This document shows positions 11,455 to 63,349 of a DNA stretch of 64,000 nt, piece by piece (the first letter of the stretch is position 1; each line of letters begins with the position of its first letter). The notes beneath the pieces were generated by a model that saw only the letters and a list, made by a program, of their open reading frames with translations, ran no database searches and had not been told where the DNA came from. This DNA comes from Patescibacteria group bacterium (GTDB lineage: Bacteria; Patescibacteriota; Microgenomatia; 2-02-FULL-39-11), in NCBI GenBank assembly GCA_023379265.1, contig JAMCUI010000007.1, positions 14,780-78,779 on the forward strand, given 5' to 3'. The translations under genes were made by a program, and so were the position numbers.

Positions 11455-11575
11455 CGGGATAAACTTGAAGGGGAGTTCCCGGCTTATATCGCAGAAGGCG
11501 AAATTCACGGTTGCGGCACAGTCCCTGATTTTCACAGGGTTCCTCTTTTCCTTCAATAGAGTTGTTAATTTACTT
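11455..11575 (-). ncRNA. cobalamin (B12) riboswitch, short-type aptamer
   Basis: The minus-strand RNA reads GGAACCCUGUGAAAAUCAGGGACUGUGCCGCAACCGUGAA...AAGCCGGGAACUCCCC. This matches the cobalamin riboswitch core GGAA-nnn-GGUG-AAA-UCC...GC-C-CCGCAAC-UGUAA and a B12-box-like AAGCC-GGGA...CCCC. It is followed by a terminator and then a gene. Confidence 0.55.
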
Positions 11576-27380: not shown

Positions 27381-27405
27381 AAAAAAACCATTCCGCAAGG
27401 AATGG
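27381..27405 (-). terminator. intrinsic terminator (TPP riboswitch expression platform)
   Basis: On the minus strand: CCAUUCC-UUGC-GGAAUGG followed by UUUUUUUAU, immediately 5' of the cytX start. Confidence 0.6.
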
Positions 27406-27520
27406 CTGTATATTTTCCCTGCGTTGGCATTATCCAAATCAGGTTATATGGGTCATCCCGATATATTTCGAGAACTCTCAGCCTGATTTCCATCAAGCTC
27501 CCCATTTAATAATTAATATT
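27405..27520 (-). ncRNA. TPP (THI-box) riboswitch
   Basis: Minus-strand RNA contains GGGGAGC...GGCUGAGA...GAUGACCC...AACCUGAUUUGGAUAAUGCCAACGCAGGGA. This is a near-consensus THI element (CUGAGA; ACCUGAUCUGGAUAAUGCCAGCGUAGGGA). Confidence 0.85.
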
Positions 27521-45667: not shown

Positions 45668-46096
45668 CTAATCCCGACTGTCCAATGCTTTATTTACCAG
45701 ATAATCTGCTCTTTGGTTTTTTTCCCTGGGGATATATGCGTATGAAATATTCCCTTTAACTTCTTGCTCTAACCGTCTTACCTGAAACATCAATTCCCTA
45801 AGATGTGCTTCCTTTACCTTAAAAAGCCCGTTTAATTGGTTTACTACTAATGTCGAATCGAGGAAAAAATGGATCTCTATTTGGTCACTTTGACCCTTTG
45901 TCGCCTTATCACTTTTTAACCATTTCAGTGCCTCAATTACTGCTGCATACTCAGCAACATTATTGGTCGTTTGCCCGATGTTTCGGGACAACTCCGCAAG
46001 AACTTGCCCGTTTTCGGTTTTTATGACTACACCAATGGCTGAAGGTCCCGGATTTCCCCTTGCACCCCCATCAGTATTGATCAATATAGAATCCAT
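45668..46096 (-). CDS. rnhA: ribonuclease HI family protein
   Basis: 142 aa. TDGGARGNPGPSAIGVV...NNVAEYAAVIEAL carries the RNase H1 DEDD-fold signature (DGG.RGNPGP; E in AEY). Confidence 0.75.
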   Translation of the reverse strand: MDSILINTDGGARGNPGPSAIGVVIKTENGQVLAELSRNIGQTTNNVAEYAAVIEALKWLKSDKATKGQSDQIEIHFFLDSTLVVNQLNGLFKVKEAHLRELMFQVRRLEQEVKGNISYAYIPREKNQRADYLVNKALDSRD

Positions 46097-46335: not shown

Positions 46336-49300
46336 TTGCTTGACTTTCATCTGAAGCTGCTTTACGCTGAAATTATGGTTCATCTAGGCGAAAATCTACC
46401 AACACCGGCCGACGCAATTATCCGAGCAAAAACGACTTACGATATGGTAAGAAAACGTCTTGGTGGAACTGTTAATACAACATTAACGCCAATTGAAATA
46501 ATCCGGAATTATAACGCAAATATTACACAAGGCCAACCAACATTTAATGAAAATCATCCTGAAAATATAGAAGCTGTCCGAAATGCACAACGGTATCAGC
46601 GTGATATAAACATGATGGGTTTACAGCCCGATGATGAATCCAGCGTAGTACAGCAAAAAATTAGAGATTTGGGAACGCTGGTAGGAAGCCTGGCGACAGA
46701 ACCTGAAAACATACTTTCGCACCTCAGACAATTTCAAGAACATGGAGCAAGACTTGGGCTGACCGGATCAACAATTGAGGAAATGGCTGCAAGTGTAGAT
46801 ACGATCTTGGCATCTGATGCTCCACTTGTCGGACTAGATTTAAATCATGATTCTCTTTTGGATATTGCTACATCTGTTTATGACACCCGCCATGATGCTG
46901 AACTTTCGGGTATGGGGAATGCCTTTACCGCACCAATGGATGAAGCGCTTCATGCTGTGGACGATTTCCGGCAACATGCTGATCGGTTGGGCATTGTAAA
47001 TGCAATAGGAAGGAATCAGCGGCCTATGAATGAACTTTTGGGAGACTTGGCAGACAGGGCACAAAGAGCAGGAGCGGGGGGCGGTACAACAGTAGCTGAA
47101 CAATTTGCTGCCGTTGATAGATTTGGAACGTTTAGAACACAAGCCACAAGAAATATCCGCATGGGGAATATTGACGCTCTCACCCGACACCAGATAGAAA
47201 ACAGGTTGAGAGATTATGCAGAAAACCTGGAACTAAGTAGAGATGGCAATGTGGACGAGGTTATCGGAAGAATTGAGAATTTTCTTACTACACAGATACA
47301 AACAGCAGGGTACGACATCACACAAAACATACCAGATTTGGTACGAACCATAAGAGCAGACCAGGATATCCTTTTCCGAGACAATCAACAACAGGGGGCA
47401 AGACGTCAACAACAACAACATCGGATACAAGAAATCGTCAACCGCGCAATTGGACTACGTAATATGGTTGACGCCGCTCTAATCACTGATCGGACTAATA
47501 CTATGCCTCTTAGGGAATTGGGCAGCCATGTCATAAACGACGCACAAATTGCAGGTGGTATTAATATTCAACAAAACCAACGGCCGCGCCTGGCATATGA
47601 AATTGCCCAAGATATTAGAAACCTCAGAAATAGCGTAAGGGCTGCACATTTTGGAAACCTTGCCAATCGTAGGATGGAGGAAATGGCACGGCAACTACGA
47701 ATACAAGGTCCTGCGCTCAGAGTAAAAGACTCAGCCAACCAACCGTTAGCAGTTATCGTCAGTGCTGCTGATAAAGTAATCAAGGAGGAAATTGGGGCGG
47801 GTGTTGAAAACGCAGATGATCTTGCTAATTCATTGCGCACGATACAAACCGACGTACAAAAATTCAGAGTAGCTGCCAAAAATGCTGGAATCGATGATGC
47901 TGATAATGCCCAGACTCCTACTGAATCGATTACCATGGAATTGCAAGCACGCGCAGGAGTCGCTCAACTGGAAAATATTGACAATTTATCTCCAACTGAG
48001 ATCGCTCAAAAACTTGTCGAGTTCAATAAGAAAATAAAGACTGCAAAAGTAGAAGTTGTTGCGGGGGATTTTAGCACAACAGTTGATAACATCTATAATA
48101 CTGCGGGGTTACTCCAAATCCCGGATCATCTAGACCAAACTCCTGAGGAACTTCTCGGACAGATCACTACAATTCTTCAAAATACCAGAACAGCCGGGTT
48201 TGCCGAAGTTCAGGCCGGGCATGTTGGAGACCTTATTGATGAGATGAGACATACAACCGGAGCATTGAGACTGACACAGGATGCACCACTTACTGACATC
48301 ATCACTTCTGCCACACAATATCGCACTGATGCGCAAACAATGGGATATGACAGAAATGCAGATATTCAGACGGTTGCCGATAATGTCAGAGGATTCAGAA
48401 CTCTAATAACGAAAAATAATATTGCCGGAGCAAGTCTTACAGAACAGGTTGCTACACTTGAAACACATCGTGCCACACTTGGTCTACCAGACCATACTGC
48501 TGCCTACCAAATACTAAATACAGTGGAAACTACCAGACAGGATGCCATAAGGATTCAAACAGGTTTTGACGCATACAATCAAAACGTCGGCGAATCACTC
48601 CGAGTAGTCAATGAGTTTCGTGACCACGCGCAAGCCTCAGGAGTCGCAGACGCAAGGGGAGAACATCAGGTTGATATAACCCATCTCATGACAAATATCA
48701 ACACAGATGCCAGAGCTGCAGGAATTGACGCGACAGATACTTGGCAAAATAAATTCGACGCAATTACGGCTTTACGCCATGATGCAGAAACCATAGCCGG
48801 AATCCAAAACGTAAATAACACATCAATGGACAATATCAAAAGACAGCTTCGCGGCATTGCAGAAGCAATAGGTTTTACCTTCAACGACAGCACATCAATC
48901 AGAAATTTTCTCACAGGTATTGACCGGTTCAACAATCTGGCAGCTGGGGCAGGTTACCAAAGAGCTCCCGGCACATCTTATACAGATATCGCTTCCCAAA
49001 TAAGACAGGACGCCCAACAATATTTTAATATTAATCAAAACGACAATGGGGTTTCCCTGGAGACTAGATTGGCACGGGTGAAGACTTTGCGTGATCATGC
49101 AGAAAAAGCTAAATATACCGGGGATGTCAGGGCAGATCAATTGTCAAGCGTGGTTGCCTTTATAAACACCGAGGCACAGGCAGCTGGACTTGATAATGCG
49201 TTAACTTTGGAAGTCAAGGCGGATACTTTGGTTAAATTAAGACAAAGAGCGATAGCAAGAGGGATAACCGATGCAAATACTGCACTTATGTCCACTTTAG

Positions 49301-51210
49301 CAGTAAATATCAAAACCGCAGGTACTGCAATCGGAAAAACTGGAAGTCTTGATGAAATATTAATAGCACTTGAGGAAACAAGCAGTCAAAGCGCTAGAGC
49401 AACCAGCGCTGTAGTTCCTCCTGCCGCCGACGCTCTTAGAATACAGGCTGAAAGAGTTACTAACTTAAGGCAGTTATTATCCACAGCGCTTCCCGGCGTT
49501 GACACTACTGGTAATTTGGATCCACTAATCGTTACGCTTCGAAATGATGCTACAGCAGCCCAAATAACCATAAATAACGCCGAGCTTCCTGAAACCATTG
49601 CTCAAAGACTGATAGATTTCAGAAGAAATGCTGAAGATGCCAGAGTTTTTGGGGCCATGACCCAAAGAGATATAAATGTCGTCGTAAGTCAAATCAGACA
49701 AGATGCCACAGTCCTTAATGTCGCAAACGCAAATGCTGACACACCGGCTAATCTTACTGCAGTGATCCACGGAATAATTCAAAGAGCCAGAGCTGCCGGC
49801 TTTCCGGATATTACACCGACAGCTGATTCGGCCAGAAACTTCAGAAATACTTTGACAGCTGCTGGCAACATACTTCACGCTGCTGCCAATGCGACACCGG
49901 ATGAGATCATAAATCTGGCCCGTACATACAGAGATAACGCCTTGGCAATCGGTATTGCCACGGCAAACACTGACATGCTTGAAGGTGATACCGGAGTAGT
50001 CAGAAGAGTTGACAATTTCGTGACTCTTGCTAATAATTACGGCTTTGCCGGTGCCAGATATGCCGATATAGAACCACAGATAAATACCATCAATCGTGCA
50101 TCACTAGGCCTCACCGCTGCAGCCACACGGGAAACAGTACTCAATGCAGTTGTTGAGAGAAAAACCCTAACAGGAAATATCGGAATGGCCAATGCCAGGG
50201 GAGCTGATATTGCCAACGTCATAAATGCTATTGACCAGTTTTGGACCAACGTGCAACACACCAACATTCCCGAGTTTACTCAAGCACACGCAGCAAGAAA
50301 TCTTGAACAACTACGACCCCTGCTTCGCACTCAAGCGGATATTGTAAACGCCTCTCCTACCGCAACACCCAGAGAAATGATTGTGACTATCGGAAATTTT
50401 AGAACAGACGGCGGGTTGATAGCGGTACCCAACGCCAATAACTGCCCTCTTGCCACAATAAGAACTGCTATAGATTCCTTTATAGGTGAAGCCGAAAAAG
50501 TTGGAGCGCCTAGAATAAATCCTGCCACTGGAGCAATAAATGATGTACAAACAATTGTGAATGACGTGAGGACAATTGCTCAAAATCTGGGAGTAGCAAA
50601 TGCCATGGCAGATTCAATACCAACAATTCTTCCACAAATTTTATTCTTTCAGGAAAGAGTCCGTCAAGAAACATCTCTTATCCATGATGCCGGACCCGGT
50701 AGGGCACGAATTGATATTGCCAGAGTAGATTGGTTAAACACTCAAACCAATGACGCAGCGGCTCAAATCATGCTACTACATAATATAGCTATATTGACTG
50801 GAACAGATATTCGTCGCAACGGCCACAATGCAAGACCTGACAATGGAGGAATCATCGCGGTTCAGCGAAACAGAATCGTTGCTACAAGAGCAGGAGCCAA
50901 CCCAGCGGTTACTGCTGATTTAGATATAGAAGATCAAAATATGAGAGAGGTGCAAGCCTATTTGGCTGGTTTCAATCGAATGAATATATCAAATCTTCTT
51001 GGGCTTATTACAACACGCCAGATTATGACTGACCCCACCGTACCAGCAGGTCTTCGTCAGGCATTTAAGACTATACCAAGCGAGGTATGGACACGACTTC
51101 CTCAGGCCGGACCTCTTCGTGGAATGAACCCAAATCGTTTATACACAATCAAAGTTGCCAGAATACTTGCTGGATTGCCGGTAGAACAGATAAATGGAGC
51201 AATTATTTAG
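46336..51210 (+). CDS. giant (about 1610-1624 aa) Ala/Arg/Gln/Thr/Asn-rich protein built from ~35 degenerate ~45-aa repeats; function unknown
   Basis: The long ORF starts at TTG 46336 or ATG 46374. It has no TM and no signal peptide. A recurring motif (F/L/I)R-x-(D/H/N)A-x-x-x-G-(I/L/F/Y)-x-x-A appears about every 40-50 residues. Examples are FRQHADRLGI, FRDHAQASGVADA, LRQRAIARGITDA and YRDNALAIGIATA. G+C is markedly higher than the flanks. Confidence 0.55.
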   Translation: MLDFHLKLLYAEIMVHLGENLPTPADAIIRAKTTYDMVRKRLGGTVNTTLTPIEIIRNYNANITQGQPTFNENHPENIEAVRNAQRYQRDINMMGLQPDDESSVVQQKIRDLGTLVGSLATEPENILSHLRQFQEHGARLGLTGSTIEEMAASVDTILASDAPLVGLDLNHDSLLDIATSVYDTRHDAELSGMGNAFTAPMDEALHAVDDFRQHADRLGIVNAIGRNQRPMNELLGDLADRAQRAGAGGGTTVAEQFAAVDRFGTFRTQATRNIRMGNIDALTRHQIENRLRDYAENLELSRDGNVDEVIGRIENFLTTQIQTAGYDITQNIPDLVRTIRADQDILFRDNQQQGARRQQQQHRIQEIVNRAIGLRNMVDAALITDRTNTMPLRELGSHVINDAQIAGGINIQQNQRPRLAYEIAQDIRNLRNSVRAAHFGNLANRRMEEMARQLRIQGPALRVKDSANQPLAVIVSAADKVIKEEIGAGVENADDLANSLRTIQTDVQKFRVAAKNAGIDDADNAQTPTESITMELQARAGVAQLENIDNLSPTEIAQKLVEFNKKIKTAKVEVVAGDFSTTVDNIYNTAGLLQIPDHLDQTPEELLGQITTILQNTRTAGFAEVQAGHVGDLIDEMRHTTGALRLTQDAPLTDIITSATQYRTDAQTMGYDRNADIQTVADNVRGFRTLITKNNIAGASLTEQVATLETHRATLGLPDHTAAYQILNTVETTRQDAIRIQTGFDAYNQNVGESLRVVNEFRDHAQASGVADARGEHQVDITHLMTNINTDARAAGIDATDTWQNKFDAITALRHDAETIAGIQNVNNTSMDNIKRQLRGIAEAIGFTFNDSTSIRNFLTGIDRFNNLAAGAGYQRAPGTSYTDIASQIRQDAQQYFNINQNDNGVSLETRLARVKTLRDHAEKAKYTGDVRADQLSSVVAFINTEAQAAGLDNALTLEVKADTLVKLRQRAIARGITDANTALMSTLAVNIKTAGTAIGKTGSLDEILIALEETSSQSARATSAVVPPAADALRIQAERVTNLRQLLSTALPGVDTTGNLDPLIVTLRNDATAAQITINNAELPETIAQRLIDFRRNAEDARVFGAMTQRDINVVVSQIRQDATVLNVANANADTPANLTAVIHGIIQRARAAGFPDITPTADSARNFRNTLTAAGNILHAAANATPDEIINLARTYRDNALAIGIATANTDMLEGDTGVVRRVDNFVTLANNYGFAGARYADIEPQINTINRASLGLTAAATRETVLNAVVERKTLTGNIGMANARGADIANVINAIDQFWTNVQHTNIPEFTQAHAARNLEQLRPLLRTQADIVNASPTATPREMIVTIGNFRTDGGLIAVPNANNCPLATIRTAIDSFIGEAEKVGAPRINPATGAINDVQTIVNDVRTIAQNLGVANAMADSIPTILPQILFFQERVRQETSLIHDAGPGRARIDIARVDWLNTQTNDAAAQIMLLHNIAILTGTDIRRNGHNARPDNGGIIAVQRNRIVATRAGANPAVTADLDIEDQNMREVQAYLAGFNRMNISNLLGLITTRQIMTDPTVPAGLRQAFKTIPSEVWTRLPQAGPLRGMNPNRLYTIKVARILAGLPVEQINGAII

Positions 51211-51592
51211 TAGAAGAAGAACCTGGTAAAGCCTTTCCATTCACTTCAACTTTCGAAGAAATCATTTGTTTGAATTCATCTCTTAACTGCGTAATCGTCT
51301 CGCTCTCTTGTTGTTCACGCAAATCACGCATAAATTTTTGATATACCTGATCTTCTATTTTCCTATATAAACTCTTATCCATTGATCTTTTTCCTTCTTG
51401 TACATCCAGAAGCGCTCTTTCAAATTCATATTGGATGTTGGCCTTTAGATAGTCATAGTATGCTGACCATAAGATTTTCTCTAGCATCAGTTTCTGGTCG
51501 GGAGTATATGACCCGATTTTAGCAAGAGTATCCTGCCTGACTTTTTCATCAATCGGCAGGAATTTAAGAAGCTGCTGCGTCGTTACAACCAT
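51203..51592 (-). CDS. hypothetical protein
   Basis: 129-aa charged helical ORF, convergent with the giant gene. No motifs recognised. Confidence 0.35.
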   Translation of the reverse strand: MVVTTQQLLKFLPIDEKVRQDTLAKIGSYTPDQKLMLEKILWSAYYDYLKANIQYEFERALLDVQEGKRSMDKSLYRKIEDQVYQKFMRDLREQQESETITQLRDEFKQMISSKVEVNGKALPGSSSTK

Positions 51593-51607
51593 ATTTACCT
51601 TAAAAAT

Positions 51608-53761
51608 TTAGACAGGATAATTTTCAATTCTATTCTCTACCACTTTCATCATATCAAATATTGCCAATTGTAAATCTACACGAGATAAGCTTCCCCCTTC
51701 ATAAAGAGTTCTTAAGGCTGAAAGCGCTTGTTCCAACCTGTCGCCAGGATTTAAGGTCAACTCAAACCGCTCAACTAGAATATCTGCCACTGCTTCCGGA
51801 GGTAAAAGCTCAGAAGCCCATCTGGCATGGTCAACCGCCTGAACGCCACCCGGAACTCTTCCAAAAACAAGTCTCTGTATCATGCTATAACCGTGAAGAA
51901 GCGTCACGTTGGTTCTTGTAGCATCACCCGGTGGCGCTACAATCGTCTCTTGAGATATATCAGTCAAACTTTGCATGGAAAACTCCTGTTGATTATCAGG
52001 ATCATTAAGTTCTCCATGAATCTGTCCGTATCTAAGAAGTGCAGCCTTTGCAGTGTCGATTATGTGTATAACATCTTCTGATGCCGATATAGGCTTTTCC
52101 GCATCTTTAACCACTTCACTTAGTCTCAAAATTTCAGTTTCTAAATTGGTTATCTCACCCGTCAACTGAGTGACCTCCTGATCTTTTACCTGCCGTTCTC
52201 GCTCTTTTGTCGGAATACTGGCTAAATCTCTTTTCACTTCAGTTAATCTCGTTTGTTTTGCAGCCAATCCTCTTTCAGTATTTCGCCTATCAACTTCAGC
52301 CAGCCTTGAATTAAATTCCGCTTCATCTTCCTGCCACTCGGTTTTATATTGCCGAGCCAGTCCTATATTATTATGAACCATTGCATCATTATAAAGTCTT
52401 CTATTTTCACGACGAGCCTCCTCTTTTTCCCTTTCGATAGTACTTCTTGCCTCGGTCATTTCTCTTATTTCCCCCTCCAAATTTCCCTGTTCCTGCTGTA
52501 AACTTGCCTGGTTGTTTCTTAAACCCTGCAACTCTCCCTCAAGTCTTGTAACTGCTTCCCTTGCAGTTTGCAATTGAGATCTTTTTTCTGTTCTTCTGGC
52601 CTTTGCATCCTCTAACTCCTCACCCCGCATCTGTTTTTGAGCTTCTGTCATTCTCGGTTTTGCTGCTGCAGCCCTTTTAGAATCAAGTTGCTCGATTACA
52701 GGTCTAAATACCTTTCCAGGCTCAGTATTAAGTAATTCCAACGCCCTCTCGGTAAAATGCACTACAGTCTCTCTCTGAGCCTTATCCCATATTTCCACCC
52801 TCCGCTGTTGAGATAAAGGACCAACAAACATACCTCCCTCTCTTGCTCTTCTCATCCTATAACCATTCCACCGACTTGCAACGTTATATCCCAAAGCATC
52901 TGGATTTACCTGTGCATTTCCCGCTGCAGTTAAGGCAAAGGAATCCCAACTGGTAAAATTACCCATCATATTTAGCTTTACCCCCAATAGATGATAAAGA
53001 TCGGCGTGCGCCCGACCTGTCTCCATTAATTCAGTCACCACCCTATCATCTGTTGCCAAAGAATTATCTCTCATATATTCCAAATAGGCTCTCTCCTCAG
53101 CTGGTAAAAAATTCCAGCTGATTGCTCCCGCACCTCTGTTTAATACGAGCCTGCCTTGAGCATCTATTAATCCAAAAGCATCAACAAGCTGATTTATCGC
53201 TTGCCTCACACCCTCACTTAATCTTTGTATTTGACCGGCATACGCATCCAAAACCACTTCTCTATCGGCAGGCCGGGGGACATCCCCTCTTGCACCTGTC
53301 ATCGCTTCCTGTCTAACCATAAGTTTGCGGAACAATTCAGTTTCAGACATGACGTGAATAGCGATTATTCCTGCCTCTGATTTTACTAGTTCGCTAAAAT
53401 CACCGTTCGCCCTTTTATAGAGTTCAAGAAATGTCTTCTGATCTGCTAACAAAACTCCTCCCGCATCCTGATATTGTTCAAGTTGAGCTCCAATATTCTC
53501 TCCCATCTTTTGGTATTCCTTCATTACTCTTGGATCAGCAATTATTTCATGGAGAGCTGGCCTACCAAATTCTCTTCCTTTCCATTTTGTTACATTTGGT
53601 TGAGATGGAGTACGTTCGTGAGGCGCATTCCTTTGCTGAGGCTCAGGAGTATCCACATGAGGGCGAGGCGTGTTTGCCGCCGGAGCCATAGCAGCAGGTT
53701 CTATAGTTGTATGAGCCGGTGGCATCGCTTGCGGTAATGTATCTGGAGTCGCTTGTGCCAT
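51608..53761 (-). CDS. coiled-coil protein with Pro/Ala-rich N-terminus (717 aa)
   Basis: The N-terminal ~60 aa are P/A/T-rich. The central ~250 aa have strong heptad, coiled-coil character (RLEGELQGLRNNQASLQQEQGNLEGEIREMTEARSTIEREKEEARREN...). There is no TM. G+C is elevated. Confidence 0.45.
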   Translation of the reverse strand: MAQATPDTLPQAMPPAHTTIEPAAMAPAANTPRPHVDTPEPQQRNAPHERTPSQPNVTKWKGREFGRPALHEIIADPRVMKEYQKMGENIGAQLEQYQDAGGVLLADQKTFLELYKRANGDFSELVKSEAGIIAIHVMSETELFRKLMVRQEAMTGARGDVPRPADREVVLDAYAGQIQRLSEGVRQAINQLVDAFGLIDAQGRLVLNRGAGAISWNFLPAEERAYLEYMRDNSLATDDRVVTELMETGRAHADLYHLLGVKLNMMGNFTSWDSFALTAAGNAQVNPDALGYNVASRWNGYRMRRAREGGMFVGPLSQQRRVEIWDKAQRETVVHFTERALELLNTEPGKVFRPVIEQLDSKRAAAAKPRMTEAQKQMRGEELEDAKARRTEKRSQLQTAREAVTRLEGELQGLRNNQASLQQEQGNLEGEIREMTEARSTIEREKEEARRENRRLYNDAMVHNNIGLARQYKTEWQEDEAEFNSRLAEVDRRNTERGLAAKQTRLTEVKRDLASIPTKERERQVKDQEVTQLTGEITNLETEILRLSEVVKDAEKPISASEDVIHIIDTAKAALLRYGQIHGELNDPDNQQEFSMQSLTDISQETIVAPPGDATRTNVTLLHGYSMIQRLVFGRVPGGVQAVDHARWASELLPPEAVADILVERFELTLNPGDRLEQALSALRTLYEGGSLSRVDLQLAIFDMMKVVENRIENYPV

Positions 53762-53834
53762 AATTTCAGCCTAGCAAATGAGGTAGGGAAATGCAACTGC
53801 CGGCAAAATATCTTTCGAACAAATACTGGAAAAT

Positions 53835-55781
53835 GTGTCAGCCGCTATGTATGATAGAAGCATGGTACTAGCTGAAGCACCGGTCACACCACCAGTTGTA
53901 GAAGCACCACACGCTCCCGCGCCTTATGTGGAACCTAAACTCCCCGGTGAAGCACCTGAACAAGCGGCTCCCGGAGAGGATGCACGACTCCATAAAGATT
54001 TCAAACAACTTATTCAGATTGACGGGACAGCCAACGGTAACAGGGCATTGGTTGATAGGGGATACGCCAAAAAAGAGACAGTTACCGCGGAATTTAAGGC
54101 AGCGGGGAAAAATGTAGGGGATGCTGCAGTACAGCAGGAAATTGATACTGAAGTGCAAAGAAGAGAAACGGAACAGCAGGATGCTAGAAAACCCAAAAAA
54201 GAAGACGCGTCAGAGGAAATGATTGCGGCTGAGGCAAAAAAGATGGCGGCAGAGGACGGACCATGGAAAGGAAAAGACGCGAATGACCCTGCATTGAGGG
54301 AAGAAGCTGCCCTTAGAGCGGCACAAAAAAGGATTGACGGATTGACAGGCGCTTATGACATTCTTTATACCGCACAGGACGCTGTAGCCTCCTACAATGC
54401 TGCTGTAGAAAGCGCCATCCAAGGGGAGGGCAACCGGCTTATCCAAGAGGAAATTGCAAAAAGGAATGCCCAGGCTCATCTTAAAACTCCTCCCGATCCT
54501 GATATTACTGATTTACCTGATGGGGAAAAAGAACAAATTAGAGCTGGAATTAATAGAAGTGAAGTCGGGAAAAGAGTCAAAAGAGAAGATTATTATGATC
54601 CGGACAATCGCAAATATCACAAAGTTGGCGCAGACGGAAAACCGACTGCAGACGTAGTCTCCTACGACGACGCGTACGAAGCCATGTATGAAGAACTCAT
54701 CAGAGTCTCTGGCTTACCACCTGCTGCTGACGGTACACCCAATCCTGATGCTGAAAGAGCCCAACAACTGTTAAAGTCACTTCACTACAATAGGGATGAA
54801 AATGCCTTCCAGGTATATACTCCGGAGCAAAAAATGCTCAAAGAGCGTGAAGCAGGACAGGAACTCCTTATCCAGACAGCCGAAAATGTCTTTAACTCCA
54901 TTTGCGACCAGGGAGTACCGCCAGCAAAAGAAGCGTCTTCGCTTGTTTCCTCACTCGGACTCTTTCTTGACCGCTTAAAAACAACCAACCCCCCGCTTAA
55001 TCCTTTACAACGCAACATGGTTCTGGCAGCTATAAATGAGAGACTGATGGGTCTTGCCAATGCCCAAACAGCAGTCATTGTCTCCGCAGAAGACGCCCGA
55101 ATGCTTGATATGCTGAAGAAAAAACCAGGCGCTATAAGACAGCTAAACGCTTTCAAAAACAACCAGGCGCTTAAAGGCATGATGAGTGACATACACAGTT
55201 CTATAAAACAAGGTTATGTGGATATCATAATGGGCACCACCCAGCACGACGTAAACATGGAACATTTCTTCCAGTCAGTTAGCCTTGCTGCGCTTTGCCG
55301 GGAACAGGGATTGACTAAACCGTCGGAAGTAAAACGGATACTGGTAAAATTCAAGATAGCCCTGACAGCTGGAGATCAACAATTGATAACTTTCCTTGCA
55401 GGGGAAGACACAGGGGGAATACGCACAAAACTTCCGGGGGGTAAAAAAGAAAATACCAACCTTGACCAAATGCTCGATCTTATAGGCATGAACGCTAAAG
55501 ATATAGGCGATTTCCCCAAATATATAGCTGCCAACGCTAAACGGATTGTGGAAAACGCGGCCATGCCTGGAGAAACCAGCCAGGCAAACTGGGCAGAAGT
55601 TGCCAAAAACAGGGAAGCCGCGCTTCGCGGTCATGCAGTGATAGCAGAAAAGTTCGTCAAAGATCCAAAGTTTAAGCTTGATGCAGGAAAAATTCTTATG
55701 CTTATTATGGGCGGTGGAACAGTCATGGGATTAGTACAACCAATACTCGAAACAAACCCCGAAGAGAAACAACAAACATGA
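53835..55781 (+). CDS. Pro/Ala-rich protein with C-terminal tail-anchor TM (648 aa)
   Basis: The N-terminus is PVTPPVVEAPHAPAPYVEPKLPGEAPEQAAPGEDA. There is a single C-terminal hydrophobic segment ILMLIMGGGTVMGLVQPIL followed by an acidic tail. It is divergent from the 717-aa gene across a 73-bp spacer. Confidence 0.45.
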   Translation: MSAAMYDRSMVLAEAPVTPPVVEAPHAPAPYVEPKLPGEAPEQAAPGEDARLHKDFKQLIQIDGTANGNRALVDRGYAKKETVTAEFKAAGKNVGDAAVQQEIDTEVQRRETEQQDARKPKKEDASEEMIAAEAKKMAAEDGPWKGKDANDPALREEAALRAAQKRIDGLTGAYDILYTAQDAVASYNAAVESAIQGEGNRLIQEEIAKRNAQAHLKTPPDPDITDLPDGEKEQIRAGINRSEVGKRVKREDYYDPDNRKYHKVGADGKPTADVVSYDDAYEAMYEELIRVSGLPPAADGTPNPDAERAQQLLKSLHYNRDENAFQVYTPEQKMLKEREAGQELLIQTAENVFNSICDQGVPPAKEASSLVSSLGLFLDRLKTTNPPLNPLQRNMVLAAINERLMGLANAQTAVIVSAEDARMLDMLKKKPGAIRQLNAFKNNQALKGMMSDIHSSIKQGYVDIIMGTTQHDVNMEHFFQSVSLAALCREQGLTKPSEVKRILVKFKIALTAGDQQLITFLAGEDTGGIRTKLPGGKKENTNLDQMLDLIGMNAKDIGDFPKYIAANAKRIVENAAMPGETSQANWAEVAKNREAALRGHAVIAEKFVKDPKFKLDAGKILMLIMGGGTVMGLVQPILETNPEEKQQT

Positions 55782-55796
55782 AGTCTGAACTAAATT

Positions 55797-56507
55797 ATGA
55801 TCATCCAGATTTTGCTATTCCTCATATTACTTATCCTTCTCTATTTTATTAGCAAAAAAATCTCTTCTGCAATTTATACTATATTTCTTCTAATATCGAA
55901 AAACAAACATTTTACAAACATTCTATTGGCGCTTATATTCTTACCCGGAACCATTCTTCATGAGATGTCCCATTTCCTTGTCGCAACGGTACTTAGAGTA
56001 CCCACAGGAAATCTGTCGGTTCTTCCAGAGCAGGAAAAAGAGGGGGAAATAAAGGCTGGGAAATTGGAACTTGGCAAAGCTGATCCTTTCCGATATTCCT
56101 TAATAGGCCTTGCGCCAATTTTGACCGGCCTAACTGTTATCTTTATTTTAGGCAAAAACTATGGTTTAGAGCTTAATTTTTTGCTTAACTTCAAAATAAC
56201 AGTCATACAACTTGCAGTATTTTTCGTTTCTATAATTATCTCAGTCACTATGTTTTCCAGCAGAAAAGACGCAGAAAGCTTGATCATTTCAGGTCCGATT
56301 ATTTTACTAATATCCATATCTTTATACCTGATAGGAGTAAGGGTCATCCTCAATCAAAATCTGGCAGAAGCAATTACGGCCTTTTTTACAGACATCAATA
56401 AGTATCTATTGTTCATTCTTATACTAGACTGGCTTCTACTGATAATATTGCAACTAATGGTAAATCTTTTGAGTAAAATATTGGGAAGAAAATTTATTGA
56501 AAGATAG
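55797..56507 (+). CDS. polytopic membrane protein with intramembrane HExxH (HEMSH) motif, putative zinc metalloprotease
   Basis: 236 aa with about 6 TM helices. HEMSHFLVA lies at the end of TM2. Composition is host-like and AT-rich, starting 16 bp after the GC-rich block. Confidence 0.4.
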   Translation: MIIQILLFLILLILLYFISKKISSAIYTIFLLISKNKHFTNILLALIFLPGTILHEMSHFLVATVLRVPTGNLSVLPEQEKEGEIKAGKLELGKADPFRYSLIGLAPILTGLTVIFILGKNYGLELNFLLNFKITVIQLAVFFVSIIISVTMFSSRKDAESLIISGPIILLISISLYLIGVRVILNQNLAEAITAFFTDINKYLLFILILDWLLLIILQLMVNLLSKILGRKFIER

Positions 56508-56511
56508 AAAT

Positions 56512-59500
56512 TTAAGTTGTGGAGGCTGATGTTTTAGAATCCGCAGCACCTTCTTTTACCCCCGTATCTTCCGTAGGTAAAACTGGCCCTGTATCTGCGG
56601 CGGGAGACTGACTTTGATCTAAAGAGGTATTTTGTTGAAAATAATCACTCAAGGGATTCTGACTTTGAGCTTCTTGTACCGGTGAATTATTCTCCTGTGG
56701 AGACACGCTAACGGTTTTATCCTTACCCTCCTCACTTGATACCTCCTGCATGCTGAAATCCTTTACTTGGGTTTCCGGATTTCCTGTATTTGGTTTATCT
56801 TTTTGACCTGCCGCTTCAACTGACGTCCCAGATGGTTTCTGTTCCATTTCCTTTACTAATTCACTGGCGCATTTGGGACAGGAAAGGGGAGAAGCATCAT
56901 CTGTTTTCCTCTGCCAGATATTGGAACAGTTAAGACACTGGTATGATTTGGAGTCTTCTTGAGGTTTGTTTCCCCCAGGCACTTCTTCTACCTGTGGATT
57001 TTTTGTCTTATCATCTACCACAGCTGGCTTTTTAAGCTCCATCTTCTTTACGTTAAAAGCTAGTTGCTGCCCGTCATAATCCACCATTACCGTATCACCC
57101 GCAGCTAATTCTCTTTTTATAAGAAGAGAGGAAATTTCATTCTCTATAAGACGTTGCATTGTCCTGCGCAAAGGCCTGGCGCCAAATACGGGATCATAAC
57201 CCACCTCGGCTAGATACGTCTTTGCATCATGACTGATATCTATAGCAATATCCTGTTCCTCAAGCAGTTTAGAAAGAGCTTTCACCTGAAGTCCTACTAT
57301 TTCCACCATATGTTTTCTGGTCAACGGTCTAAAAACTACCACCTCGTCAAAACGATTAAGAAGTTCCGGACGGAAAAACTTGCGCAACTCTTCCATCAGG
57401 CGATCCGCCAATCGAGCAAACATCTCATCTTCTCCACTATCGGATTTTTCCTCGTCTTTATTCTCCAAACCCAAAGGAATAATATCTTCAGGCTTTTTAG
57501 TCTGTGCCTCTACTGTACTAAACAATTTCACCATCTTTCCAGAAATCCATTCGGTTGAATCCGTATTTGCTCTCTGGAAATAACGTCCGACAGCAACGAT
57601 TAATTCCTCACCAGTAGGCTTAAAAACGTGTTGATCCCATTTTTCAATAGGAAACTCAATCTTTTCCTCGTCTTTAGGATTAATCTCAACTCCTGTTTTA
57701 TCCTCTGACTGTTGTGCATTATCAATTCTTTTCTCACTTGTATTTACCTCAACCTGATTGGTGCCGCCATTATCTGTTTTATTGTTTACGGTTTTTAATT
57801 CGTCTGTCTTTATATCTCCACCTGAAATATCCGAACCGTCTGTTTTTTCTTTCCCTTCCGGTGTTTTTCCTATAGAAACAACGTCTGCGCCCTTCAACGT
57901 ACATCCCGTAAAATACTCAGCTAGCGTACCCGTAGTCCAATCTGTTGTCTGCAAATTCTCCCTTAGCCAAAACCTGTCTCCGAAAGAAACCACTTCAGTA
58001 TTGGTAGGGGATACAGCATGTGTATCAATCCTCGCAGTAGGCAACTGTTCTTGAGGCCGGTCAGGAAGAGCATTCACCACTACACCTCCTTTTACATAAT
58101 CCAAAAGAGATTTTTGTGTCCATTCTTTGGTCGTTGTTGAGGTACGCTGCCACAACCTATCGTCAAAAGTTATAATTTCCGAGCCGTCAGGAGCGATAAG
58201 ATGAGTATCTATACCGTCCTGAGGGAAATCTTTTTCTCCCTCTGTTACCGTGGAACCGGCAAAATAGTCTAAGAGTGAAGAAACTGTCCAGAACTTATCG
58301 CTTCCTTCCTTCTCCCACAGTTTTCCCTTAAAACTCACAAGTTCCCGTCCAGTTGGCGAAATAGTATAAGTACTAAAAATTTCCTTTTCTTTAGTTTCAT
58401 GACTTTCTTCATTATTTTTTGACTTATCACTCCAACCCAACATTTCATCCTGGATGATACCGCTACCTAGATTGGAAGTACAAATAACAATGGTATTCTT
58501 GAAAGAAATGGTATGTCCTTTATTATCAGTCAACCTACCATCATCTAGAAGCTGTATAAGAATATTAAAAACATCTGGATGGGCTTTTTCTATTTCATCA
58601 AATAAAACTACTGAATATGGTCTTCTTCTCACCGCTTCAGTTAATTGCCCTCCCTCTTCATAACCAACATATCCAGGAGGCGCACCAATTAATTTTGCGA
58701 CCTCGTGCTTTTCCATATACTCGGTCATGTCAAGCCGGACGATCATCTCCTCGCTTCCAAAAAGTATCTCAGCTAAAGCTTTCGCCAACTCTGTTTTCCC
58801 TACTCCGGTTGGTCCCATAAAGATAAAACTACCAATCGGCCTCTTGTTTGATTTAAGTCCTGCCCGGCCGCGTCTGACTGCTTCGGCTACCGCCAATACC
58901 GCATCTTCCTGATCTATAAGCCTCTTATGGATAATATCCTCCAGACTCATCAACTTTGTCGATTCGCTTTCAGTCAACCTGCTTATTGGAATATTTGTCC
59001 AGCGGGAAACAATATCGGCAATTATATCCGGCCCGACAATATTGGTCGTAGTCGATTTCTTTACCTGATATTGCTCTTTAAGTTCTGTTTGGGCCTGCTC
59101 CAATTCCTGAATGTCTTTTTTTATAGTCTGGAGGTGAACTTCATCTCCTAATTTTTCCGCTTCTTTTGCTTCACTATCCAACTTTTTCAATTTATCTTCG
59201 CCTTTTTTTATTTCCTCCGGTAAGGAAATTGCGGGCAATCTTACAGAAGCCGCAGCTTCATCAATTAGATCAACTGCTTTATCAGGCAAAAACCTGTCAC
59301 CAATATAACGCTGTGATAGTTTTACAGCTGCATCCAAAGCCTCGTCTGATATTTTTACACGGTGAAAAGCTTCGTATTTATCACGAAGAGCAGAAAGCAT
59401 TTCAACGGCCACATCAGCTGTAGGCTCCAAAACATATACTGGCTGAAATCTTCTTTCAAGTGCTGGATCCTTCTCCACATATTTTCTGTATTCAGTCACT

Positions 59501-60843
59501 GTTGTCGTCCCTATCACCTGCAATTCACCACGGGCAAGGGATGGTTTAAGAATATTTGACGCGTCCATGGTTCCTTCACCACCAGAACCCGCTCCCACCA
59601 TATTATGCAACTCATCAATAAAGAGAATAATTGCTCCACTTGCGGCCTTGACTTCTTTAATAAGGTTTTTCAACCTCTCTTCAAACTCCCCCCTATGCTT
59701 TGCTCCGGCGATAAGAGACATCAAGTCAAGCAATAACACTCTTTTATGAAGAAGGGTTTCCGGAACATCTCCATGAGCAATGCGAAGAGCCAAACCCTCT
59801 ACAATTGCAGTCTTACCCACGCCCGCATCTCCGATTAACACAGGATTATTTTTAGTTCTTCGTGAGAGTATGTGAATGATACGTTCAATCTCAGTACTTC
59901 GGCCAACCACCGGATCAAGCTGTCCCTGGGCTGCTTTAGCGGTTAAGTCTTCAGTGTATTCCTCAAGGGCAGAACTGGTCTTTTTCTCCTCTTCTTTCTC
60001 TAATTCTTTCTTTCCTGTTATCTTTTTATTCAACACCTCAGGCTTCAAATTGTATTTAACTAAAGTTCTTGCAGCTAGGCCTTCCCCTTCATGCGAAAGA
60101 GCCAATAATATATGCTCTGGAGAAACAAACTCGTACCCTAAAGATCTTGCAGCAGACAACGACAACTCAAGCACCCGCTTCACTCGGGGGGAAAACTGCG
60201 GTTGCCCGGAAAAATTGCCTTGTTTGAAACTTTTCTCCAATTCCGTTTGTATCTCTGATGGAGTAGCCTTACATTCGGAAATAATCTGGTAAATACTGCT
60301 ATCTCGAAGAAGCCCCCAAAGCACATGTTCTGTATCTATGTACTGGATTTTCAACTCTTTTGCTTTTCCCACAGCACTCATTAGAGCAGTATTCGCTCTT
60401 TGGGTAAGTCGAGAAAGAACGTCCATTCCAGCTCTCTTTTTCATATCTATATTCGTCTGACCATCACTTGAAGTGTCTTTTTTTTGTGGGGTATTTTTAT
60501 CTTTTTGCTGTTGTTCTGTCTTTCCTTTTGATTGGTCTGGTTTTTGAGAAACACTATTCTGCTGCTGTCCGACAACAGGCGGCTTGCCTATTCCAGAAAA
60601 AGCTTTACCACCAGGAGGATTACCAATTCCCGAATAACTTGTGCCTGATGGGGAATTACCTATCCCTGAATAAGAAGTGTTTGTATCTTGCACGGTATCC
60701 GAAGCCGCTTGGGTTGAGTTTTTTGTAATGGTAACTACCCGTTGGTCTACATCTTGACCACCCGTAGCATCATTTTGCTGACTCTTGCCACCTGAAGCGT
60801 CTTTTTTCAAGTATCTGCTGAAATTAAAAAGTCCTGCGGGCAT
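56512..60843 (-). CDS. ClpB/ClpC-like two-ring AAA+ chaperone with GS-rich N-terminal leader, large D2 insertion of four novel repeats, and C-terminal zinc ribbon
   Basis: 1443 aa. Clp-N repeats. D1 Walker [16 protein letters not shown] short M-domain coiled coil. D2 Walker [15 protein letters not shown] and TSNLGS. The '[15 protein letters not shown]' sensor motif (standard spacing from TSNLGS ~45 aa) is then delayed by about 340 aa, a stretch carrying four copies of H-x-x-x-P-x-G-x-E-(I/V)-x-x-F-...-W-...-W-T-...-L-x-x-Y-F. There is a CxxC...CxxC zinc ribbon near the C-terminus. The true start may be the internal Met near 60444. Confidence 0.75.
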
Positions 60844-61140: not shown

Positions 61141-62634
61141 ATGGAACAACATCCAGTCCCAAGAAATATTAGCGGTTTCCAGTTCCACCTTATCGGAGAT
61201 ATGACGCTGCGCCAATTTGGTTATTTAGCTGTAGGAATTGGAGGAGCTTATTTCATTTTTAAGCTTGCGCCGTTCCCGTCTATAATCAGTTTTCCGCTTG
61301 CGGGAATAGTAGGATTGGCAGGTTTTGCTTTTGCCTTTTTACCGATTCAGGAAAGACCTTTGGATAAATGGTTAGTAGCGTTTATAAAAAGCGTCACTTC
61401 TCCCACGCAATATTTATGGATAAAAAACAACCCTCCACCTGATGTACTAACAAGACCAATTGTAATTGGACAACGGGTGATATCACAATCAACACCCCAT
61501 ATAGTTGCGCATAGAGAAGCGCAACAAAAATTAGCTTCATATCTAGCATCGCTTCCTCAATCACCCCATGAAACCTTAAATCTAAGGGAGAAAAAATATA
61601 TCAACTCCACGCTGTCACTTTTTCAAACATCGGGTGTATATATAGGAAACAACCCGACAACATATGTCGCCTCAAAACCGTCTTACGCACAACATGTCGA
61701 GCCCTTAAGATATACCCCTCTTTCCAAACAATCCACACCCATTAACGCTTCTTTTACCAGCCATGTAGTAAAATCGCCACAAACCGATGCAGCGACTCAA
61801 CCTAAATCTGATAAAGTTGCTGCGGGTTTTAAGCAAATAACTATAAGCCAACCGTCAAACATAAAGTCAAATACACAAATAACCTCTACACCTACTATTC
61901 ACGACGCGCCAACACAGCAAGCAACTGAAAAAAATGCTACGCAAAAAAATGTCCAGCAGCAGACTAAAAAACCTGCTATTTTGCCTTCAAACCTAAAACC
62001 AATAACACAATCAATAAACCCACCCACTTCGCAAAAATCAATCGCCCAAGCTGATAAGGTTAAAGATCAAAATATTCCAGAAACTCAAAACGAAACAAAT
62101 AGCCTCCAAAAACAACTAACAGACTTGGCCGCGGAAAAAAAGAGGCTTGAAGACGAATTGAACAAACTTAAAAATGAAAGAGTGAATTTGGAAAAACCAG
62201 AGATTGTAAAACCTGTTGCCATGGAGGAAAAACCCTCAAAAGAACCAACGATAAAAACTATACCAGCAAAATCTGTTGCTTTAGAAATGGGCATTACAAA
62301 TATAAACCAAAACCCCAATATTATTGCGGGTGTTTTTAAGGATCCTCAACATAAAATTTTACCAAACATTATTCTCACAATAAAAGATAAAAACAATAAC
62401 CCCTTAAGAGCAATGAAAACTAACAAACTTGGTCAATTTGCTACTGCCACACCTTTACCAAATGGGGTATATCTACTAGAAGCCGAAGATCCGCTGAAAA
62501 GGTATGTCTTTGATATTGCCGAAATCACGCTTGCCGGTAAAGTATTTTCTCCAGTAGAAATAATAGCCAAAGGTGAAAAAGAACTTATGAGGGAAAAACT
62601 TAACAAAGCGGTTTTTGGCAATGCTACAATATAG
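61141..62634 (+). CDS. membrane protein with N-terminal double-TM domain and Thr/Pro/Gln-rich extracellular region plus coiled coil; possible T4SS-associated (VirB3-like N-terminus)
   Basis: 497 aa. Two N-terminal TMs (FGYLAVGIGGAYFIFKL / SFPLAGIVGLAGFAFAFLPI) followed by ERPLDKWL, a low-complexity T/P/Q/K-rich region and the coiled coil LQKQLTDLAAEKKRLEDELNKLKNE. It sits directly upstream of a VirB4-like gene. Confidence 0.35.
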   Translation: MEQHPVPRNISGFQFHLIGDMTLRQFGYLAVGIGGAYFIFKLAPFPSIISFPLAGIVGLAGFAFAFLPIQERPLDKWLVAFIKSVTSPTQYLWIKNNPPPDVLTRPIVIGQRVISQSTPHIVAHREAQQKLASYLASLPQSPHETLNLREKKYINSTLSLFQTSGVYIGNNPTTYVASKPSYAQHVEPLRYTPLSKQSTPINASFTSHVVKSPQTDAATQPKSDKVAAGFKQITISQPSNIKSNTQITSTPTIHDAPTQQATEKNATQKNVQQQTKKPAILPSNLKPITQSINPPTSQKSIAQADKVKDQNIPETQNETNSLQKQLTDLAAEKKRLEDELNKLKNERVNLEKPEIVKPVAMEEKPSKEPTIKTIPAKSVALEMGITNINQNPNIIAGVFKDPQHKILPNIILTIKDKNNNPLRAMKTNKLGQFATATPLPNGVYLLEAEDPLKRYVFDIAEITLAGKVFSPVEIIAKGEKELMREKLNKAVFGNATI

Positions 62635-62668
62635 TAGTAAGTGAATTTAATAAGGCTTAATTTATTAT

Positions 62669-63349
62669 ATGTCACAACCGACATCCGCCCCCATAAGGGC
62701 AACAACTCAAGAATTTTTAGATATTGAAGATATTAAGGAGGATATTATTATTCTTCGGGATGGTTCAGCCGCCCTGGTTATAGAAACAACTGCGGTAAAT
62801 TTTGGCCTTTTATCTGAAGAGGAACAAGACGCTCTAATTTATGCTTACGCTTCACTAATTAACTCCCTTTCATTTTCTCTCCAAGTAGCCATCTTATCCA
62901 AACGGATGGACATTTCCTCATATATCGAAACTATCACCCAGGAAGAAGAAAAACAGAATAATCCTGTTGTGAGAAGCCGTTTACACACCTATAAGGAATT
63001 TATTATGTCTATTGTAAAAGAAAATCGGGTTTTGGAAAAGAAGTTTTATCTAGCAATTCCTTTCTCAGCGTTAGAATTGGGGGTAAAAGGAGCTGTTGGT
63101 GGAAATAAAAAAAGATTGCCATTTTCCATAGATTATATAGTTTCAAGAGCTAAAACATCGCTTTTACCCAAACGAGACCATCTTTTAAGACAGTTAGGAA
63201 GAATCGGATTAAAAGGCAGACAACTACCAACGCAGGAATTGGTAGAAATTTTTTATAACATTTACAATCCCACATTGACCGGTGAAAAGCTCGGTGAAAT
63301 CGCGGGATACACCAAACCTTTAGTCGAAGGGTTAGGAAAGAACCTATGA
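62669..63349 (+). CDS. VirB4/TraC-family conjugative ATPase, N-terminal segment encoded as a separate ORF
   Basis: 226 aa. QEFLDIEDIKEDIIILRDGSAALVIETTAVNFGLLSEEEQDALIYAYASLINSLSFSLQVAILSKRMDISSYIE follows the N-terminal pattern of Gram-positive-type VirB4 proteins (QEFLPI..I.DGII..KDG....IEV.PINF.L.SE.E). Its stop overlaps the next ATG (ATGA). Confidence 0.45.
   Translation: MSQPTSAPIRATTQEFLDIEDIKEDIIILRDGSAALVIETTAVNFGLLSEEEQDALIYAYASLINSLSFSLQVAILSKRMDISSYIETITQEEEKQNNPVVRSRLHTYKEFIMSIVKENRVLEKKFYLAIPFSALELGVKGAVGGNKKRLPFSIDYIVSRAKTSLLPKRDHLLRQLGRIGLKGRQLPTQELVEIFYNIYNPTLTGEKLGEIAGYTKPLVEGLGKNL

Follow-up and report, generated by a model that had tools for sequence, protein, structure and literature searches.

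In Patescibacteria, an MPF-FATA-like type IV secretion system (T4SS) is encoded by a PrgI/VirB3 - TrsD - VirB4 locus near dnaA (Quinonero-Coronel et al. 2025, PMC12102498). That study found no adhesins, named no substrates and viewed the T4SS as co-opted for an unknown non-conjugative role; VirD4 is encoded away from virB4 in most genomes, and the supplements mention neither ClpB nor the families flanking the cassette described here, ClpB being absent from the paper as well. The role of this T4SS has also been called 'completely unknown', and the system is reported as conserved and, in Saccharibacteria, essential (PMC11665869). Here a 64,000-nt stretch of contig JAMCUI010000007.1 from the metagenome-assembled genome of an ultra-small Patescibacteria group bacterium (the window, to which all coordinates refer) was analyzed, with emphasis on a G+C-rich block at 46336-55781. 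The block holds four open reading frames (ORFs) of 1624, 129, 717 and 648 aa, hereafter the giant, p129, p717 and p648. To the right of the block, in the window and just beyond it, is the same PrgI, TraC-like/TrsD-like, VirB4, dnaN, dnaA order as the published locus; the difference is that the block proteins match no T4SS component profile and belong to the unannotated grey genes around virB4 (PMC12102498). An initial annotation of the block, which placed the four ORFs correctly, had favored a foreign origin. The results indicate that the block is very probably native chromosomal DNA, a conserved, fast-evolving and vertically inherited clade-specific cassette with a composition driven by its proteins, and that horizontal acquisition is essentially excluded.

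The elevated G+C content of the block is genuine, at 0.445 compared with 0.385 for the remaining window, and the block is the window maximum at the 9.4-kb scale (0.443 at 46251; median 0.388). The flanks had been estimated at the mid-30s % throughout, a value not borne out by the window mean of 0.385, the ClpB gene at 0.42 or the L25 gene (39074-39832) at 0.445. Within the block, p129 has a G+C content of only 0.37, contrary to the mid/upper-40s % estimated for the block. Both edges had been described as abrupt. At the right edge G+C indeed falls where the p648 gene ends, 15 nt ahead of the next AT-rich gene, and the edge is sharp because that gene encodes an Ile/Leu/Phe-rich membrane protein. 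At the left edge the reported exact step at the start of the giant gene proved to be a ramp over ~300 nt, from 0.29-0.31 in the intergenic region through 0.37-0.41 in the first 300 nt of the gene to at least 0.45 from ~46600 onward.

Analysis by codon position for each block gene revealed that the rise is in the first (GC1, 0.57-0.61) and second (GC2, 0.39-0.43) positions, the result of proteins rich in Ala, Arg, Gly, Pro and Thr and poor in Lys, Ile and Phe, with normal third positions (GC3). The fraction of Gly, Ala, Arg and Pro (GARP) was 0.30 in the block proteins and ~0.21 elsewhere. GC3 was 0.340 for the giant, 0.354 for p129, 0.334 for p717 and 0.405 for p648, within a background range of 0.26-0.41, and the pooled values were 0.352 for the block and 0.331 for the background. 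The shift of Arg codons toward CGN, taken earlier as a sign of foreign origin, was not found: 82 of 233 Arg codons in the block (0.35) and 218 of 665 in the background (0.33) are CGN (Fisher p = 0.52). When each protein was threaded through the window's own synonymous codon frequencies, the expected and observed G+C contents were 0.438 and 0.445 for the giant, 0.372 and 0.375 for p129, 0.456 and 0.440 for p717, and 0.443 and 0.469 for p648. The likelihood of the synonymous choices, evaluated with 300 simulations per gene, gave z scores of +2.3 for the giant, +0.4 for p129, -2.0 for p717 and +3.7 for p648, where the background had a standard deviation of 1.3 and a maximum of 2.2. The p648 gene is the only one in the block with mildly raised GC3 (z +3.3). 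Thus, once amino-acid composition is controlled for, GC3 and codon usage are indistinguishable from the background with p648 as a mild outlier. The higher G+C content is a by-product of amino-acid composition and the compositional signal is ordinary, in agreement with the alternative that the initial annotation had offered, namely native genes with an Ala/Arg/Gly/Pro bias.

The distribution of the block genes was examined in sequence collections. In a collection of 5.8 billion clusters, each large protein matched just two sequences, itself and a sibling (73-83% identity). Database proteins with full or 99% identity carry the label 'Patescibacteria group bacterium' M1271 and M1366. Gene order on the contigs of the sibling species (L001, L004) is that of the window. 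A profile of the giant repeat, with 48 positions and built from 17 of its own repeats, was used for an exhaustive search of 1.84 billion representatives, in which the only true distant relatives were P0007 (E 4e-13) and P0008 (E 1e-8). Candidates P0009-P0013 from the same search were rejected as unrelated repeats of HA-domain and other types, the HA profile aligning with the giant repeat profile at an hhalign probability of 19.6%. The genes around P0007 and P0008 encode, in order, L25, LytR, DUF4012, RNase H, the giant, a small protein, proteins of ~750 aa and ~580 aa, a membrane protein of ~250 aa, a long ClpB and PrgI. The syntenic order is RNase H, giant, p129, p717, p648, a membrane protein with an HExxH motif, long ClpB, PrgI-TrsD-VirB4, dnaN and dnaA, and the cassette occurs in this synteny in at least three further Patescibacteria lineages, the family being known from about five. 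A scan of a genome collection with p129 recovered the sibling contig only. That contig (CAZFNL010000079.1; L004/L009), with flanks of 92-93% nucleotide identity, sits in a metagenome-assembled genome labelled 'uncultured Gammaproteobacteria bacterium', probably a binning error.

The neighboring proteins of the distant loci L005 and L006 are 42-65% identical to those of the window, whereas for the giant, p717 and p648 identity is 21-31% or BLAST detects no similarity; apart from their conserved C-terminal domain the giant orthologues are only 22-24% identical, and p129 is 44-53% identical to its distant orthologues. Orthology of p717 and p648 is supported by alignment and by hhalign, with probabilities of 99.9% and 99.8%, respectively, against the orthologues at locus L011. 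In the distant orthologues GARP is kept at 0.27-0.30 and GC3 is 0.19-0.28, below that of their own flanks. At L011 (FWPV01000210.1, 4519-14432) the genes for p129, p717, p648 and the membrane protein are inverted together as a single unit flanked by RNase H and ClpB; the 20 kb examined at that locus contained no giant gene. On the short contig L010 the giant C-terminus is convergent with p129. Overall, the block was found in the sibling species, in two distant lineages and, lacking the giant gene, in one more lineage. The cassette is composed of two parts, the giant helical-repeat protein and a divergent four-gene module in which p129 lies downstream of p717 on one strand and the HExxH protein downstream of p648 on the other. 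Since the AT-rich gene for the HExxH membrane protein accompanies the module in every lineage, the functional unit exceeds the compositional block.

These results bear directly on whether the block is an island acquired from a higher-G+C donor, such as the host of an episymbiont, with retention of the donor composition. That origin would account for the G+C maximum of the window, for proteins without homologues in the well-known families of the host lineage, and for the slightly high GC3 and atypical codon choice of p648, a small yet real excess (z +3.3 to +3.7) beyond what amino-acid composition accounts for, and one that speaks against a wholly native reading. The GC3 and Arg codons are equal to those of the background, however, and the amino acids alone predict the G+C content. 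The synteny holds where flanking proteins are only 42-65% identical, and there the GC3 of the cassette is below that of the flanks. Homologues in the cluster and representative collections are confined to the same syntenic Patescibacteria locus, and the block is at that locus in every relative found. The hallmarks of mobile DNA are also absent: no integrase-like ORF was detected among the neighboring genes by family scans, no tRNA lies within 40 kb of the block, and the window contains neither direct or flanking DNA repeats nor a second copy of the block. A tblastn search for the giant in collections of phages and plasmids gave no match, and no viral relative was revealed when IMG/VR was scanned for patterns derived from the p717 and p129 alignments. 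Acquisition from such a donor is therefore most improbable, and the native reading of the block is retained.

The cassette coincides with a region of unusual divergence. Compared with the sibling species, the flanks are 89-95% identical at the nucleotide level with synonymous divergence (dS) of 0.22-0.36, whereas the region from 45.5 to 55.8 kb, which includes the RNase H-like gene, is 65-88% identical with dS of 0.74-1.44. The RNase H-like gene is the left neighbor of the cassette in L001, L004, L005, L006 and L011, and its dS relative to the sibling (0.97) is like that of the block and unlike that of the flanks. The ratio of nonsynonymous to synonymous divergence (dN/dS) was 0.07-0.15 for the block genes, 0.147 for the giant, and the four ORFs are real genes under purifying selection. 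Raised dS together with low dN/dS indicates recombinational exchange of old diverged alleles and not relaxed constraint. The dS along the giant gene is uneven, with low values of 0.07-0.23 for aa 1-100 and 302-602 and high values of 1.3-2.0 for aa 703-1102 and 1503-1602. When a conspecific strain (L002 = L003) was compared over 24.8 kb, 95 of the 97 differences fell within 47006-55345 (binomial 2e-37), with dense patches of 31 differences in 118 bp (50307-50424) and 17 in 74 bp (55136-55209). The patches represent a third allele type, matching neither the window nor the sibling allele, and the substitutions include both transitions and transversions and are in many cases synonymous. Mutagenesis of the type directed by diversity-generating retroelements was considered and rejected: the 142-aa neighbor contains an RNase H domain only, the window has no second DNA copy of the block, and the changes are mixed and often synonymous. 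The locus is a divergence and recombination hotspot, a mosaic of alleles recombined within and between populations. Hypervariable, recombining loci for surface or host-interaction proteins are a general population-genetic pattern in host-associated bacteria. The block resembles such loci in the concentration of strain differences, the several-fold elevation of dS and the mosaic tracts; it differs in that the dN/dS gives no signal of pervasive positive selection.

The giant had been placed from the TTG codon at the start of its ORF. The downstream ATG is the probable start, as in the public annotations of P0001 and P0002, and yields a protein of 1610 aa. With a pI of 5.5 and a net charge of -31, this protein is acidic, and it contains neither a signal peptide nor a transmembrane segment. 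Each repeat unit consists of two helix-loop halves of ~25 aa ending with [FLI]R..A...G[IVL], with the consensus IRNDAQAAGLTNDAAATPEEILTRVDTFRTDAQNLGIANA. The units are ~30% identical to each other, no DNA-level repeat is left, and a search of the block revealed no DNA tandem repeats. The relatives of the giant have fewer units (1163-1259 aa; overall length range 1163-1624 aa) and have in common with it an N-terminal segment and a C-terminal domain of ~185 aa, which is not repetitive and contains the motifs HN[IL]..[IL].G.D, DP.[VI]P..LR, W and [IL]LAG. The 3' ends of the convergent giant and p129 genes overlap by 8 nt (51203-51210), leaving no room for a terminator; in L005 and L006 the pairs are 9-14 nt apart.

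A single-sequence AlphaFold2 (AF2) model of aa 425-1624 was unusable (pLDDT 36.7). A second prediction was made from an alignment of non-overlapping three-unit tiles taken from the window protein, the sibling protein, P0007 and P0008. The resulting model of three units (aa 788-942) was confident, with a pLDDT of 93.5 and a pTM of 0.85, with helices of 14-19 aa and loops of ~10 aa. No match was obtained for this model among PDB and viral folds, and it did not superimpose on any solved repeat protein; among the BFVD entries listed are Rho-N-like proteins at E > 1. The full-length protein matched no family at E <= 0.1, known helical repeats (TPR, HEAT, ARM, Sel1, PPR, ankyrin, SAP and HA) included, and a scan of 27 three-unit tiles at E <= 10 revealed no recurring family, with very weak SAP-like matches in 2 of the tiles (E 0.06). 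The C-terminal domain was likewise without a match among PDB profiles. The tandem helix-loop-helix arrangement, the variable number of units and the all-alpha model are features in common with helical solenoids (HEAT, ARM, TPR, Sel1, PPR and designed repeats). Taken together with the prediction, the giant is best described as an ordered protein built from an undescribed, predicted helical repeat without a counterpart in sequence or solved structure.

The absence of recognizable domains from the four block proteins, reported previously, was confirmed. Neither the giant nor p129, p717 or p648 matched a family in Pfam, NCBIfam, PHROGs, PADLOC or PDB sequences, and searches of PDB sequences and profiles with the four proteins and the C-terminal domain of the giant gave nothing at E < 0.1. 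Only sub-threshold matches were obtained for the window proteins and distant orthologues, to coiled coils, MakA, DUF7342 and M50. In the block proteins no effector domain was detected, whether nuclease, NTPase or another type, and signal peptides are absent from all of them. Low complexity had been attributed to all four; it holds for the Pro/Ala-rich N-termini of p717 and p648 and not for the giant, with its ordered repeats, or p129, which is of ordinary composition.

The p129 and p717 genes are 15 nt apart, with p129 downstream, and are probably an operon. The coiled coil of p717, located centrally in a protein with two conserved globular regions, extends over ~200 aa (aa ~360-600, window ~51962-52684) and is the source of all its weak matches, which are to SMC (2.5e-4, far under the cut-off), keratin and JetC; against PDB profiles only coiled coils at E > 0.1 were recovered. 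Identification of p717 as an SMC, MukB or JetC condensin was rejected, there being no recognizable ATPase head and a match limited to aa 371-598, with 12-19 bits against cut-offs of 567-729. The p717 orthologues of L005 (11076-13472, minus strand) and L011 (7663-9984, plus strand) contain a hydrophobic, transmembrane-like insert at aa ~223-260 that the window and L006 proteins do not have. The single transmembrane segment of p648 is at the C-terminus (aa 620-639, window 55692-55751), with only ~9 residues beyond the membrane. The p717 and p648 proteins are not a paralogous pair (probability 3.5%). Between the divergent p717 and p648 genes a motif, CTAGCAAA.G..GT(n5)AA.TGCAACTG, is kept in the window, in L004 (5952-6017) and in L005 (13473-13554), and persists between genomes whose proteins share only 21-31% identity. 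Its minus-strand form is TTGCA[AT]-17 nt-TAG[GT].T, which in the window stops ~6 nt short of the ATG of p717, an arrangement that may represent the promoter for a leaderless transcript. Generic promoter and terminator scans of the block gave no enrichment over shuffled sequences, and no Rfam family was found in the block.

The membrane protein encoded downstream of p648 contains the motif GT[IL][IL]HExxH, invariant in five orthologues, in a hydrophobic segment (HExxH at aa 55-59, window 55959-55973), and a second conserved motif, S.TMF.S..D.E. Its gene is always co-directional with p648 and directly downstream, the pair is kept in all five lineages, and at L011 it moves with p648, p717 and p129 in the inverted unit. 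Peptidase_M50 (PF02163) did not match the window protein; the L005 orthologue gave E 0.0038 and 17.0 bits, under the 27.2-bit cut-off. A polytopic HExxH protein adjacent to a single-transmembrane protein, here p648, is also the arrangement of the site-2 protease/M50 pairs of regulated intramembrane proteolysis. The canonical second M50 motif was not identified in the HExxH protein, however, and cleavage of p648 is a purely inferred step.

The T4SS cluster begins to the right of the cassette and the ClpB gene, with genes for a PrgI/VirB3-like protein and a TraC-like protein; the latter is taken to be the TrsD of the published locus (PMC12102498). Just beyond the window (L007) are VirB4, a gene of 500 aa, dnaN, dnaA, rpmH, rnpA, yidD and yidC. 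The cassette is located ~10 kb from dnaA and 4-8 genes upstream of virB4 in the window and L007, that is, within ~20 coding sequences. In L005 and L006 it has the same position relative to ClpB and PrgI, where the examined sequence ends, and at L011 ORFs of PrgI-TrsD-VirB4 size directly follow the cassette and ClpB. No homology to T4SS components was found for the giant, p129, p717, p648 or their orthologues in Pfam and NCBIfam. A VirD4-like coupling-protein candidate with HerA/DUF87 and TrwB_AAD_bind matches is encoded ~55 kb from the virB4 cluster, a separation in line with that of most published genomes (PMC12102498).

A typical ClpB has ~860 aa. The homologue in the window is considerably longer. 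Its N-terminal extension of ~160 aa is disordered, Q/S/G-rich and contains SYSGIGNxPxG repeats; ~350 aa made up of four ~50-aa copies of '..P.G.E.[IV].F...[LF]W.R......W....L.[DE]YF.G' are inserted between AAA_2 and ClpB_D2-small; and a C-terminal CxxC...CxxC zinc ribbon is followed by a disordered tail. Long versions, each encoded between the cassette and PrgI, are kept in L005 (1247 aa), L006 (1397 aa) and L011 (1302 aa).

In the X-Tfe/XVIPCD effectors of Xanthomonas, which are T4SS substrates, the body varies and the C-terminal recognition domain is conserved. Like these substrates the giant lacks a Sec signal and combines a variable center with conservation of its C-terminal domain, and the genome encodes a VirD4-like protein; the differences are that the giant has no sequence similarity to the XVIPCD-type domain and is missing from one T4SS-bearing locus. 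A link between the cassette and the T4SS is suggested on the basis of position, Sec-independence, the pairing of a variable body with a conserved C-terminal domain, and the population-genetic signature. Tentatively, and as a possibility rather than a probability, the cassette may serve the T4SS as an accessory, cargo or host-interface module that encodes Sec-independent proteins. The giant would act as an elongated scaffold of helical repeats, variable in unit number and with a C-terminal domain that docks or recognizes, and p717 would be a coiled-coil partner. Held in the membrane by its tail anchor, p648 might be released by the co-transcribed HExxH protein, which resembles an intramembrane metalloprotease. 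The unusual ClpB may take part in a T4SS-linked role. A more elaborate version, which is unlikely, would make the giant a member of a new helical-repeat fold family and a host-interaction protein delivered or displayed by the T4SS, recognized by its conserved C-terminal domain and diversified by recombination in an arms race with host bacteria; protease-released p648 together with p717 and p129 would form a docking or chaperone apparatus, and the insertion-bearing ClpB would prepare the 1,600-residue substrate for export by unfolding it. The earlier suggestion of structural or adhesin/effector-like proteins is compatible with the T4SS-adjacent position and the hypervariability. Several points weigh against the proposed function and the observations on which it draws. 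No member of the cassette is homologous to a known T4SS component, adhesin or effector, and the link is one of adjacency only. Gene order near oriC in reduced genomes may be conserved without functional coupling. The giant is missing at L011 although T4SS genes are present, and is therefore not an obligatory partner. The model of the giant was obtained from an unconventional alignment of its own repeat tiles, so that packing between units may be biased, and some mosaic patches in these metagenome assemblies could be a consensus mixed from co-existing strains, which would still imply polymorphism at the locus.

The alternative that the cassette encodes housekeeping cytoplasmic machinery, for example a nucleoid- or chromosome-organizing or cytoskeletal complex near oriC in which the giant would be a helical-repeat scaffold joined by a coiled-coil protein and a small subunit, with coincidental adjacency to the T4SS, is of low probability. 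It is consistent with the absence of signal peptides from the block proteins and of transmembrane segments from the giant, with the proximity to dnaA, and with the weak SMC/MukB-like matches of p717 and the SAP-like and Rho-N-like matches of the giant. Those of p717 are far under the cut-offs, however, and p717 has no recognizable ATPase head, while an acidic giant is ill-suited to coating DNA. Moreover, strain hypervariability, a 3- to 5-fold elevation of dS and mosaic alleles are unusual for core complexes, the giant is dispensable at the L011 locus, and p648 is membrane-anchored and paired with a membrane protease-like protein. Hypervariability and recombination would instead be explained by an arms race with mobile elements if the cassette were a defense or conflict system, directed against phages or competitors. 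Large proteins without assigned function adjoining an AAA+ ATPase are in agreement with such a system, as is the match of the second nucleotide-binding domain of ClpB to the PADLOC candidate families PDC-M37B and DolB. This explanation is nonetheless very unlikely, the ClpB matches being generic to AAA+ proteins in what is otherwise a full ClpB architecture and the PADLOC matches of the four block proteins only coiled-coil noise (E 0.004-0.008). Defense islands are typically patchy, whereas the position of the cassette is fixed across lineages with neighbors at 42-65% identity, and no effector domain was detected in the block proteins.

The coordinates of the features described above are listed in Table 1 with those of other features of the window. 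To the left of the cassette, two tandem class A penicillin-binding protein genes followed by LytR and DUF4012 form a cell-wall gene neighborhood. A thiamine pyrophosphate (TPP) riboswitch lies upstream of a gene for a cytosine/purine-family permease. A cobalamin riboswitch, barely over the threshold, is flanked by a cobalamin adenosyltransferase gene on one side and an 828-aa gene without a Pfam family on the other, and a class II-type ribonucleotide reductase gene adjoins this region. Three tRNA genes are located within 4.2 kb of each other.

Table 1. Positions of the cassette, its neighbors and other features in the 64,000-nt window.
Feature	Position	Strand	Description
RNase H-like gene	45668-46096	-	142 aa; Pfam RVT_3 9e-18, RNase_H 2e-10
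Giant ORF	46336-51210	+	1624 aa; opens at TTG 46336
Giant gene, probable start	46378-51210	+	1610 aa from ATG 46378
Giant repeat array	46693-50628	+	aa ~120-1431 of the 1624-aa ORF; ~26 units of ~50 aa
Giant conserved non-repeat C-terminal domain	50653-51207	+	aa ~1440-1624; aligned with P0002, P0007, P0008 and the L010 fragment
p129	51203-51592	-	129 aa; small soluble protein; best conserved cassette member
p717	51608-53761	-	717 aa; Pro/Ala-rich N-terminus, conserved N-domain, central coiled coil, conserved C-domain
Divergent p717/p648 intergenic region	53762-53834		73 bp; promoter-like motif by sequence inspection
p648	53835-55781	+	648 aa; tail-anchored; Pro/Ala-rich N-terminus; conserved YYD..YH..DG.P..VSY core
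HExxH membrane protein	55797-56507	+	236 aa; polytopic; G+C 0.34; 15 nt after p648
Long ClpB homologue	56512-60843	-	1443 aa; conserved right-hand neighbor
Start of T4SS cluster	61141-63349	+	PrgI/VirB3-like, 497 aa (Pfam PrgI 5.7e-9); TraC-like, 226 aa
VirD4-like candidate	4757-7102	-	781 aa
tRNA-Met	440-512	+	
tRNA-Met	1696-1768	+	
tRNA-Ile	4568-4640	-	anticodon TAT
Cobalamin riboswitch	11453-11569	-	32.8 bits
Ribonucleotide reductase	12185-14515		class II-type
Cytosine/purine-family permease	26028-27353		
TPP riboswitch	27398-27514	-	65 bits
Class A penicillin-binding protein	31378-33627	+	transglycosylase and transpeptidase
Class A penicillin-binding protein	33735-36110	+	transglycosylase and transpeptidase

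For the scanning of genomes, the block is a clean example of a false island, in which a local rise of 6 points in G+C is made entirely by amino-acid composition; the question was settled by GC3 combined with synteny. The general importance of the cassette is uncertain, the link to the T4SS being positional and the lineages a handful. Located beside prgI-trsD-virB4, Sec-independent and hypervariable, the cassette nevertheless supplies concrete candidates for a role in the T4SS of these organisms, in particular the giant with its undescribed repeat and the tail-anchored p648 paired with a membrane protease-like protein.

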